A stretch of DNA of 52,838 nt, taken from assembly GCA_019058365.1 (NCBI GenBank), contig JAHPZE010000030.1, forward strand, positions 1 to 52,838, read 5' to 3'. This DNA comes from Promethearchaeota archaeon (GTDB lineage Archaea; Asgardarchaeota; Lokiarchaeia; Sigyniarchaeales; SOKP01). Numbering within the stretch: position 1 is the stretch's first letter; the number at the start of each line of letters is the position of its first letter. A program made the translations under genes and the position numbers. The notes beneath the pieces were generated by a model. The model was not told the DNA's origin. It did not search any database and saw only the letters and a list, made by a program, of their open reading frames with translations. This document shows positions 20,092 to 45,691 of this stretch, piece by piece.

Positions 20092-20403
20092 TTAGTTTTC
20101 TTTAATTGAAACTGCGTTTAATCTTAGATGTTCTTTTCCAATTATTAAAGTTTTTTTAGAATCTCCCAATTTTACCTCAACTAAATAACAACGGCCTCTT
20201 TGACCAACTACAGTACCTGTTCTACCATGAAATCTTGAGTGGGGCATCCCCCGTTTATGTTGGGAAGGATCTGTAATAATATCTACTTTATCATCAACAT
20301 TATAATCTATTAAATACTTTTCTACAGAACCTAAACCTGTTTTACGTACATTTTTTCTGTGTTTATGCCTTGTTTTCTTACGGAATCCATGGTGTTTTAC
20401 TAT
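20092..20403 (-). CDS. rpl21e: 50S ribosomal protein L21e (absent from the ORF track; inferred ATA start)
   Basis: Own translation (M)VKHHGFRKKTRHK...DKVDIITDPSQHKRGMPHSRFHGRTGTVVGQRGRCYLVEV...KEHLRL, 103 aa; lies between pus10 and rpoF. Confidence 0.95.
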   Translation of the reverse strand: MVKHHGFRKKTRHKHRKNVRKTGLGSVEKYLIDYNVDDKVDIITDPSQHKRGMPHSRFHGRTGTVVGQRGRCYLVEVKLGDSKKTLIIGKEHLRLNAVSIKEN

Positions 20404-20515
20404 CGTGACACACCTTTTAGATTATTATTATAATAATAAATTAATTTAGTAGGATTATGAATGATAATTTATTTATTTTTTGATTTTAAACAAAGAAAAA
20501 TTGATAATGTCAGCT

Positions 20516-30289: not shown

Positions 30290-30433
30290 AGTGCTTAAAA
30301 ATTGGTCTAGGCTAAACTTTTTTGATGAGAATTATTTTATTATATTATAGCAAATAATATTAAATTTTTAAGTTAGAAAAATCATATAATTCATAAATCA
30401 GAAAATAAATAAAACTATGGAGTTGAGCCAATC

Positions 30434-31084
30434 ATCGGGTTAAAGAAAAAGTTATTTCCTAGGAAGGGTAAGGAAAAAGATGATTTAGTCGCTAAGGCTA
30501 AAGGACATATTCATAGATTGAATATGATGAATAAGAATTACAATCAGCGAGCAGAAATAAGTAGAAAAAACGCTAAAATTGCTTTGAAGCGGGGAGAAAA
30601 AGATAGAGCAAAAAGTTATCTTGTACAATATAAAGCATATCAAGCTAAGGTTGATCGATCTAATAATATAAGGTTAAAGATTGAAAGGCAGATTCAAGCG
30701 ATAGAAGAAGGAATGCTCATCTCCCAAACTGGAGATGTGATGGGGGGAATTCGAGATGAACTTGAATATATTGCGACCAAAGCTTCACCCACTAAAGTAG
30801 CAGAAATAGCAGAGGATTCTGAAGCATACGTTTCTGAAATCGAGGAAGCAGCAGAAATTTTAGCCGGTGATCCAGAAATCGATCTTGCTATTGATGTTAC
30901 AGATGAATTAAATCAACTTGAGACTGAAATGCTTCTAGATCAAGGAGGAACAATGCCTGAAATTCCTTCAGATGATTTACAATATATACCTGAATTAGAT
31001 GAGTTAGAAGAGAAAGCTGAAATTAAATCAAAAGATCAATTGAAAGATGAGATTGATAAACTTCGTAAGGAACTACAGGGATAA
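30434..31084 (+). CDS. ESCRT-III subunit, Snf7 family (Vps20/32/60-like); start extended to an inferred ATC
   Basis: Basic N-terminal half and acidic C-terminal half; (M)GLKKKLF helix 0, AKIALKRGEKDRAK, DELNQLE, MPEIPS, terminal LKDEIDKLRKEL. Confidence 0.85.
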   Translation: MGLKKKLFPRKGKEKDDLVAKAKGHIHRLNMMNKNYNQRAEISRKNAKIALKRGEKDRAKSYLVQYKAYQAKVDRSNNIRLKIERQIQAIEEGMLISQTGDVMGGIRDELEYIATKASPTKVAEIAEDSEAYVSEIEEAAEILAGDPEIDLAIDVTDELNQLETEMLLDQGGTMPEIPSDDLQYIPELDELEEKAEIKSKDQLKDEIDKLRKELQG

Positions 31085-43723: not shown

Positions 43724-45691
43724 TCACACCCTCTGCCAAAAAGGTGAGAGATGTTGAATTATTGCAGTAGGTTTATCAGGAATTATTGCTAATTCTTTTC
43801 TTATCCATTCTGAAATCCATTTATATTTTGCCTTAAATCTGCTATCCATGAAAATTATTGCTCCTTTATCAGAAATCTTTCTTATTGGCCTTCCTGAAGC
43901 CTGATTTGCTCTCTGAACGGCGGGGTATAAATAAGCGAAATTCCACCCTTGTCTTTTAAACACTTTATCATAATATTTTATTTTTGCTTCTACTCTAGGG
44001 GTCGGTAAATGATAAGGAAATCCAGCAATTATTACAGAATTCATAAAATCTCCTGGATAATCTTCTCCTTCTGAGTTTCTCCCCCCACATACTCCTAATA
44101 AGACAGCCCCACTATTTGAAGCCATGCTTTTAAAATCATCCACCAATATTGCATTTTCAGAGGCGGATAATCCAGGTTCCTCAATGAATAATTTTTTATT
44201 ATTCTTTTTTGCTACAATCTCTATTCCATTACCTAATAATCCTTTAAGAATTTTATATGATGCACAAAAAATACCAACATTTGCGGGGGTACAAGTTAAA
44301 ACTTCATTTATTTTTCCAATCATTTTTTTATACATATCAGGGTGTCTATTATCTCTTTTTGTATCTACTCCGTCAATAATAATAGCTTTGATATTTTTCT
44401 TACTAAATGGTGAATCAGCAATAATTCCTTTATAACTCTTGCCACACTCATTTAATCCCATTAAATTATTATAAACATAAGGGTTCACAGTTCCAGAGAG
44501 ATTTAAGCATGTATATCCTTTTTTCAAAATAGGAATAGCAATTTCTCTAGGATCTAATGCTACAATTTCAAGTGAGATTGACCGCTTTCCTTTAATTTCT
44601 TTAATATTATAACAAAAAAAATAATTATCTAATGTGTATGTTTTCAACCATTTTAACCAAAATTCTGCTAAAGAGCCAATAAAATCTCGTGAAATTTCTC
44701 CATTTGCAAGTTTTTCCTCATGAATAGATACACTGAAATCATGCAGATCTTCAACAAAATTTTTAAATCCATTAAGATCTTGAAATCCTAACTTTTTATA
44801 GATTGATTGTAACTGTTTATCTGGTTGGACTGCTTTTTCTTTAAAACGTAGATTAATTTTTTTCTCATTTAACTGATCTAACAATATTTTAACAAAACTC
44901 TGCATTAAAATGGGGGATCGATACATTTCAAGATCTTTTAAACAGAGTCTTAATGAATATGGTGTGATTTTTTGTGAATTTACTTCTGTTGCAACATCTA
45001 ATATATTATGACATTCATCTATTACTAAAATACAATTTTGAAGCTCTTGACCAATGAATTCTAAGAACGAATCTCGTATAAATGGGTTAAAAATCCATTG
45101 ATAATTGCATATGATTACTTTCATTGATTCCAGTAAAAATTTACTTAAGAAATATGGACAAAATCTTTTTTCCTTACAAAATAATATAAGATCGTCTGCA
45201 TCAATAGGTTTATTAAACAATTCTGGAGCAATTGATATTGAATTTTCGGCTTGTCCCCTTTTTTTTAACAAGTTTAAAAAATAAATACAATTTCTATTTT
45301 TCCTTAAATCTCTACAGACTGACATTGCTTCTGTTGGATTTAACTTGAGAGATAATAATGTTTCATTTAGACACATTTCATTTCTACCTCTTATCGAAAG
45401 GCCATTAAGATTTACTCCCAGTTTGTCATTTATTACTTTTTGCGAGATTTTTATCAATTCTTTGATGATTCGTCGATTTTGAGAATGTGTCCTACACATA
45501 TAAATAATTTTTAAATTCTTTTCAAAAGCTAAAGGGAGTACACTAGATAAGGCAATAATGGTTTTGCCTGTTCCGTTAGGTGCTGATAATAAAGAAATCT
45601 TTTTTGATTTTGAACTTAATTCAATCTGCTTAATAATATTTTCTTGATTTTCTCTGAATTGCTCGTAAGGAAAAAAAGATAAATAGTTTAT
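43724..45691 (-). CDS. xpd: XPD/Rad3 Fe-S helicase; start extended to an inferred ATA
   Basis: Extension adds FFPYEQFRENQ (Q motif) and APNGTGKT (Walker A); RGRNEMC, CPYF, DECHN, LSGT, SEGED, QASGRPIR. Confidence 0.92.
   Translation of the reverse strand: MNYLSFFPYEQFRENQENIIKQIELSSKSKKISLLSAPNGTGKTIIALSSVLPLAFEKNLKIIYMCRTHSQNRRIIKELIKISQKVINDKLGVNLNGLSIRGRNEMCLNETLLSLKLNPTEAMSVCRDLRKNRNCIYFLNLLKKRGQAENSISIAPELFNKPIDADDLILFCKEKRFCPYFLSKFLLESMKVIICNYQWIFNPFIRDSFLEFIGQELQNCILVIDECHNILDVATEVNSQKITPYSLRLCLKDLEMYRSPILMQSFVKILLDQLNEKKINLRFKEKAVQPDKQLQSIYKKLGFQDLNGFKNFVEDLHDFSVSIHEEKLANGEISRDFIGSLAEFWLKWLKTYTLDNYFFCYNIKEIKGKRSISLEIVALDPREIAIPILKKGYTCLNLSGTVNPYVYNNLMGLNECGKSYKGIIADSPFSKKNIKAIIIDGVDTKRDNRHPDMYKKMIGKINEVLTCTPANVGIFCASYKILKGLLGNGIEIVAKKNNKKLFIEEPGLSASENAILVDDFKSMASNSGAVLLGVCGGRNSEGEDYPGDFMNSVIIAGFPYHLPTPRVEAKIKYYDKVFKRQGWNFAYLYPAVQRANQASGRPIRKISDKGAIIFMDSRFKAKYKWISEWIRKELAIIPDKPTAIIQHLSPFWQRV

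Follow-up and report, generated by a model that had tools for sequence, protein, structure and literature searches.

Non-canonical initiation in described systems

The start set of NCBI translation table 11 includes ATA, ATT and ATC (together ATH, or AUH in RNA), and ATH starts are also used by mitochondria and plastids. Initiation in archaea involves eukaryote-type factors: aIF1, aIF1A and aIF2. In E. coli, infC (encoding IF3) and pcnB start at AUU behind a Shine-Dalgarno (SD) sequence, and AUU and AUA have been tested in vitro (PMC5499595). The gene described here, rpl21e of a Promethearchaeota archaeon from the Asgard class Lokiarchaeia, resembles these two: a third-position near-cognate codon is placed by an SD, with the normal initiator tRNA as its reader (which for the archaeon is inferred), and the gene for a fidelity factor, aIF1, has an invariant ATT much as infC has its AUU. 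In E. coli such starts are confined to a few special genes that are down-tuned and kept in check by IF3, whereas the ATH genes here amount to an estimated ~3-10% of the total, include ribosomal proteins, actin and housekeeping enzymes, and belong to an archaeon of the aIF1/aIF2 type. Animal mitochondria also use ATH codons as routine starts in an AT-rich genome, but they have no SD and a single tRNA-Met with f5C34, and AUA is read as Met in elongation as well; in the archaeon internal AUH codons are ordinary Ile codons and the starts are SD-dependent.

Near-cognate initiation in eukaryotes is under the control of eIF1 and eIF5 (PMC3326321, PMC4705826), and eIF1 keeps its own production in check by way of a weak start context (PMC3326321). 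The related aIF1 destabilises non-AUG complexes (PMC6237735). As in eukaryotes, the SUI1 factor family would be expected to police near-cognate starts in the archaeon; eukaryotic near-cognate starts, however, are mostly CUG, GUG or ACG, of low efficiency and selected by scanning, while those described here are AUH, directed by an SD and found on the main ORFs of core genes. A further precedent is a “rare ATT start codon” proposed in 2026 for AtubA of a Kariarchaeaceae (Heimdall-group) MAG (PMC13394414). It too concerns an Asgard gene with a deposited protein that was too short and was restored by an ATT at the proper distance from the ribosome binding site, but it was a methods remark on a single gene, called rare, without a frequency, a lineage pattern or a comparative test. 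A 2026 review of Asgard archaea discusses the rarity of SD sequences in Lokiarchaea but not start codons, and a literature search returned no account of Asgard archaea starting genes at ATH throughout a lineage. SD-directed near-cognate initiation at this frequency, and on this class of genes, is new in that it has not been described for any archaeon, with the reservation that there is no direct evidence of translation.

The rpl21e gene and its start

The window is the whole stretch of DNA that was analysed, 52,838 nucleotides of contig JAHPZE010000030.1; the features discussed are collected in Table 1. On the minus strand the 5′ end of rpl21e reads TAA TCT AAA AGG TGT GTC ACG ATA GTA AAA CAC CAT GGA. 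The original prediction, made from the letters of the window, was that this gene, closed upstream by the TAA and lacking any ATG, GTG or TTG until the middle of the protein, begins at an ATA 5 nt behind GGTGTG. The letters match exactly: GGTGTG occupies 20414-20409, the gap to ATA is 5 nt from GGTGTG and 7 nt from GGTG, and the stop-to-stop frame of 109 codons is without any of the three canonical starts before codon 53, the Met of RGMPHSRF. The 3′ end of the genome's own 16S rRNA (...GGATCACCTCCT) is the canonical anti-SD and is complementary to the AAGGTG of rpl21e, whose 7-nt spacing falls inside the 5-9 nt asked of such a site. Read from the ATA, eL21 has 103 residues and matches the Pfam family Ribosomal_L21e (PF01157) with 102.5 bits, where the cut-off is 27; the match runs from residue 3 to 94 and covers positions 3-97 of the 101 in the profile.

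On this arrangement, AAGGUG would pair with the 3′ end of the 16S rRNA (CACCU) and so position the 30S subunit with AUA in the P site. The normal Met-tRNAi (CAU) could then pair with the A and the U and tolerate the mismatch at the third position, and eL21 would begin with Met, although its N-terminal residue has not been determined.

Upstream of rpl21e lies a Pus10-like gene with an uncertain start of its own: the best model start is an ATG at codon 31 (posterior 0.34), and a CxxC zinc motif lies upstream of that ATG.

Table 1. Positions of the features discussed. Coordinates refer to the window unless a contig (C) of the archaeon's own genome (G000) or a locus (L) is named.
Feature	Coordinates	Strand	Remarks
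In-frame TAA	20422..20424	-	closes the rpl21e frame six codons upstream of ATA
Shine-Dalgarno AAGGTG	20411..20416	-	core GGTG 20414-20411, 7 nt before ATA
ATA initiation codon of rpl21e	20401..20403	-
rpl21e CDS (ribosomal protein eL21)	20095..20403	-	103 codons; stop TAA 20094-20092
First in-frame canonical start of rpl21e	20245..20247	-	ATG, codon 53; start used by gene callers, giving a 51-aa product
Pus10-like gene	21808-20516	-	upstream of rpl21e
Snf7/ESCRT-III frame	30413..31084	+	possible start ATC 30431-30433 behind GGAG
XPD/Rad3-type helicase	43724..45691	-	ATA 45691-45689; GGTG 45702-45699, 7 nt upstream
uS14	G000:C34:9211-9357; L278:112-258	+	main ribosomal-protein cluster
aIF1/SUI1 gene	G000:C35:130394-130609; L158:1477-1791	-	ATT start
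Initiator tRNA	G000:C35, about 107637-107744	+	31-nt intron after position 37/38

The start position among relatives

The rpl21e locus was compared among 30 relatives and 80 species of the GTDB genome collection, which left 89 species once duplicates had been removed (the records are labelled Promethearchaeota or Promethearchaeia MAGs, and some are mislabelled). The codon aligned with ATA is ATA in 21 of the 89 species, ATC in 8, ATT in 8, TTG in 28, CTG in 4, GTG in 4 and ATG in 16. Apart from ATG itself, these are exactly its one-mismatch relatives at positions 1 and 3; TTA, CTH and GTH never occur. Where codon 1 would read as Leu it is always TTG or CTG (29/29 in one part of the species set), and where it would read as Val it is GTG (4/4), even though TTG and CTG make up only 14% of the Leu codons of the archaeon's own genome and GTG only 11% of its Val codons. 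Codon 1 is thus constrained as a start, because at an ordinary hydrophobic position TTA or GTT would be expected in most cases. The codon just upstream of it varies freely among relatives. Many species have an in-frame stop 4-7 codons before the start, and no canonical start in the interval.

GGTG is found at the same offset in most relatives, among them seven outgroup species of the sister family (f2), where the gene starts with ATG or TTG; this shared geometry bears out the proposal that the start is SD-directed. That ATA falls where homologues begin was likewise confirmed: the outgroup orthologues have ATG or TTG there, and their M-V-K-H-H-G-Y-R begins at the aligned codon. On a poorly resolved tree (from a 102-column protein alignment) the start codon of rpl21e has undergone at least 29 changes, at least 15 of them switches between ATH and NTG. 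Over evolutionary time AUH interchanges freely with AUG, UUG, GUG and CUG at the same position.

The same alignment bears on two other ways of starting the gene. Translation might begin at another non-canonical codon between the TAA and the ATA, such as ACG (20406) or GTC (20409), and the ACG is indeed near-cognate, in frame and just upstream of ATA. Its position is unconstrained in relatives, however, where ACG, GCG, GCA, GAA, ACC, AAA, ACT, ATT and GTT are found; only the ATA position is restricted to near-cognates, and ACG would sit only 4 nt after GGTG. Such a start is very improbable. A canonical start might instead be supplied by recoding or editing. The SD of rpl21e contains two out-of-frame GTG triplets, so that initiation at a GTG of AGGTGTG could be followed by a frameshift, and editing of AUA to AUG or AUI is not excluded in the absence of RNA data. 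Both routes nonetheless seem highly unlikely: the GTG frames of the window close after 3 and 11 codons, and that of one relative (L016) after a single further codon (GTG GCT TAA); ATA, ATC, ATT and CTG could not all be repaired by one editing chemistry; and the same GGTG offset serves outgroup genes that start with ATG.

One relative (G022:C11, locus L024) has an in-frame TAA at codon 18 of rpl21e (RK*VRD), which could be an assembly error, a pseudogene or a case of read-through.

Sequencing error and gene decay

Two findings had been named in advance as fatal to an ATA start: reads with ATG at 20401-20403 and a second intact rpl21e elsewhere in the genome. Neither appeared. Reads of the probable source run cover the rpl21e stretch to a depth of 78 without any difference, none having ATG, and an independent 2-kb contig from a salt-marsh study, at depth 11.5 and 97% identity, has other bases at 20390 and 20406 but the same ones at 20401-20403. 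A sequencing error at the ATA was rejected, as ATH is kept both in this contig and in dozens of species assemblies. The 4.74-Mb genome (54 contigs, rated 100% complete) has a single PF01157 match and no second rpl21e.

Selection on the first half of the gene is informative about its reading frame. Among 23 congeneric species (253 pairs), codons 2-52, which all lie upstream of the first canonical start, have a pS of 0.70, a pN of 0.13 and a pN/pS of 0.19, and are therefore translated in the ATA frame. The alternative is that rpl21e is decaying, or that translation begins at Met53 and yields just the C-terminal 51 residues, exactly the product that gene callers output. This is the least credible of the alternatives considered: the gene is the only source of eL21 in a complete genome, and the codons under purifying selection hold most of the Pfam domain, in an arrangement repeated in dozens of species. 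The premise that a core ribosomal gene should not be a pseudogene was therefore sound for this single-copy gene. The data establish that rpl21e is intact and that AUA is the only codon able to serve as its start. We further conclude, with a probability of roughly 0.85, that this intact, single-copy gene is expressed and starts at AUA (20403), and that such starts are ordinary practice in its clade; proteomic, ribosome-profiling and RNA data are lacking.

ATH starts across the genome

Two approaches were used to estimate how common ATH starts are in the archaeon's own genome. The first is free of any model and counts triplets at fixed distances after GGTG. It was applied to the 5′ ends of frames with 100 codons or more that have no canonical start further upstream in frame; distances of 4, 5, 10, 11, 13 and 14 nt served as off-peak values. 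ATA occurs 27 times at 7 nt versus 2-7 times off peak and ATT 16 times versus 0-9, while the control triplet AAA occurs 9 times versus 4-20. At 7-8 nt after GGTG there are 74 ATH codons against 70 canonical starts, and the on-peak enrichment of ATH relative to four abundant control codons has an odds ratio of 5.4 (p 1e-10).

The second approach is a generative start model fitted by EM, which weighs coding against non-coding codon likelihoods, learns a 20-nt upstream matrix and allows all 61 sense codons as starts. (A first EM without the coding term and a loose 5-mer SD test were too noisy and were left out of the results.) Over 3680 frames of at least 120 codons, the start shares are.693 for ATG,.106 for TTG and.032 for GTG, and.046 for ATT,.040 for ATA and.015 for ATC, which gives a sum of ~10% for ATH; noise codons such as TCA (.009) and AAA (.005) are rarer. 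According to the model, then, ATT and ATA are each commoner as starts than GTG. With a posterior of at least 0.8 required, 63 of 2434 calls are ATH, a floor of ~2.6% (~3%). The figure of ~10% comes from a home-made model in which the noise assigned to “other” codons is 6% for the whole genome and 11-21% for samples of 0.3-1 Mb, and there is some circularity in the stronger SD score of the confident ATH calls, since without a strong SD a rare start type would not attain a high posterior. The confident calls and the model put between ~3% and ~10% of genes at AUA, AUU or AUC, mostly behind a strong SD. TTG accounts for ~10.6% of starts in this genome and 5.1% in that of a sister-family species (G032), so the shift to weak start codons is not limited to ATH.

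Individual ATH genes

Twenty ATH genes were run through Pfam. In 13 of them the domain runs from profile position 1-3 and begins 2-12 residues after the ATH, and the first canonical start, where measured, lies 24-176 codons downstream. Among the genes with a domain at the ATH are eL21, actin, an SDR, two Ras-type GTPases, a GPN-loop GTPase, a response regulator, an NTP-transferase, AFOR, NifU/IscU, a USP and a rubrerythrin, the last with no canonical start in its whole frame; the Pfam domains of uL16 and XPD likewise begin at ATH. The domain of an ABC ATPase runs from residue 22 and would also be lost with a canonical-only start. ATH codons of the archaeon also align with the ATG of orthologues (IRVKDKIVVL with MRVKDKIVVL, and IGLRLASGLA with MGLKLASTLA), and between two congeners the aligned start columns are ATH-ATH in five pairs.

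The original prediction cited two further ATH starts within the window. That of XPD (ATA) holds and is forced, as its first canonical start lies 64 codons downstream, past the Walker A motif. That of the ESCRT-III gene (ATC) is plausible but not forced, since a TTG/ATG at about codon 35 is not excluded as the start. Most genes of the main ribosomal-protein cluster start with ATG. Within it, the frame of the zinc-type uS14 (49 codons) is without any ATG, GTG or TTG and has an ATA 7 nt after GGTGA (its Pfam S14 score, 25.5 bits, is just below the cut-off of 27), and uL15 probably starts at ATT.

Extent of the trait

ATH starts are not evenly spread over the genomes sampled. The model gives an ATH share of.112 in a congener (G006, 400 kb; 9 confident ATH of 208 calls) and.099 in a 0.9-Mb sample of the archaeon's own genome (14/521). 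In three more distant species (G041, G042 and G045; 63-74% eL21 identity, 0.3-0.4 Mb each) the values are noisy, at.048,.054 and.065; the pooled share is.071, with 8 confident ATH among 550 calls. Two equally AT-rich species of the sister family f2 have shares of.011 (G032, GC 0.31, 800 kb; 0/369) and.001 (G030, GC 0.36, 322 kb; 0/171). The sampling did not extend to families f3 and f4 or to other Asgard classes. The ATH habit belongs to a broad clade around the archaeon's own genus, and AT-richness alone was rejected as its cause, because G032 has only ~1% ATH at a GC of 0.31. As for the claim of relaxed, SD-directed ATH initiation in this lineage, the frequency of ATH is supported by the genome statistics and the 20 Pfam-checked genes, while “relaxed” fidelity is only inferred.

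In the G042 sample (G042:C40, L244-L261), and among the sampled genomes only there, the model assigned 3.7% of starts to GTA, with 6 confident calls; they could reflect noise contributed by a repeated gene family, or GTA could be one more codon that is tolerated.

aIF1, the initiator tRNA and possible causes

The SD dependence of ATH starts and their clade-specific frequency are demonstrated statistically; which tRNA is used, what the N-terminal residue is and why fidelity is permissive are inferred. The gene for aIF1 itself has a 107-codon frame with no Met and no in-frame GTG or TTG before the zinc knuckle. Its ATT is invariant in the archaeon, in the 22 congeners whose locus could be read and in G041-G045: in this clade the 5′ end consists of a stop, 1-3 codons (more in G045) and then ATT. 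Among the sister families TTG and GTG predominate at the aligned start; G030 has ATA, and G035 and G029 have ATG. The parallel with bacterial infC (AUU) and with the weak start context of eukaryotic eIF1 (PMC3326321, PMC6237735) suggests that the proofreading factor may limit itself, although the feedback is itself an inference.

Several candidate causes were tried and rejected. First, a weak aIF1 start is not sufficient for genome-wide ATH, because G030 probably starts aIF1 at ATA and yet has ~0.1% ATH. Second, aIF1 has been neither lost nor diverged: it is present, with the basic loop RKWGR, CASGGT and QGDHR as in the outgroup. Third, Tsr3 (PF04034), an enzyme that modifies the P site of small-subunit rRNA, is present in both clades. 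Fourth, an altered or second initiator tRNA was rejected, since a pattern search of the archaeon's genome gave a single canonical gene, with anticodon CAU, A1:U72 and three G-C pairs, and did not find an initiator-like gene with another anticodon (UAU, GAU or AAU). The proposed inspection of aIF1 and the initiator tRNA for fidelity changes was thus carried out and both look intact, and no molecular change accounting for the permissiveness was found in aIF1, the initiator tRNA gene or Tsr3.

Many tRNA genes of this genome are interrupted by introns. ARAGORN found 11 tRNAs, or 30 once introns were allowed, and neither Met nor Ile was among them; Rfam found 25. Both scans are incomplete because of the introns.

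An intact aIF1 and initiator tRNA gene leave room for a modification. AUH could be read by an initiator modified at C34, as in animal mitochondria, where f5C34 reads AUA, AUU and AUC starts, or by an Ile-tRNA, which would give the protein an N-terminal Ile. Against this, the pattern search gave no second initiator-like tRNA gene, and the interchange of CTG and TTG with ATH at the rpl21e start fits a single CAU initiator that tolerates one mismatch. A modified or Ile-carrying reader is unlikely, if somewhat less so than a start at ACG or an edited AUA, and the ordinary Met-tRNAi remains the preferred reader of the AUA of rpl21e.

A broader reading is that initiation follows a shifted rule throughout a large clade of Lokiarchaeia: AUH behind an SD drives core genes, and stringency is set by a self-limiting, AUU-started aIF1. 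This reading is tentative, and its chances fall a little below even. It would require AUH to be efficient enough for highly expressed proteins such as eL21, uL16, uS14 and actin, and its cause would be a change not yet identified, for example in tRNA or rRNA modification or in factor dosage. If true, it would amount to a lineage-specific retuning of start fidelity in close archaeal relatives of eukaryotes. Start-codon stringency could be studied comparatively here, with a lineage in which third-position near-cognate starts are frequent, a sister family that lacks them and an aIF1 that itself starts at AUU.

Consequences for annotation

In this clade up to a few hundred genes per genome are cut short or lost, because Prodigal-type gene callers allow only ATG, GTG and TTG. 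P-loops, Rossmann motifs and the Walker A motif of XPD would vanish by the same 5′ cutting, and cut genes distort inventories of eukaryotic signature proteins, phylogenies and structure predictions from Asgard MAGs. The claim that annotations hide or truncate such genes holds for eL21 in public protein sets: NCBI, JGI/IMG and Logan gene calls on 10 contigs contain exactly the 51-aa protein that starts at Met53, and the full-length eL21 sequence of this genome was not found in any of the three. The closest full-length eL21 proteins in databases are at most 87% identical, though species 92-96% identical exist as DNA. The claim does not hold everywhere, as the NCBI pipeline has already called ATA or ATC as Met for eL21 in some relatives (P0006, P0018); single instances thus stand unremarked in GenBank.
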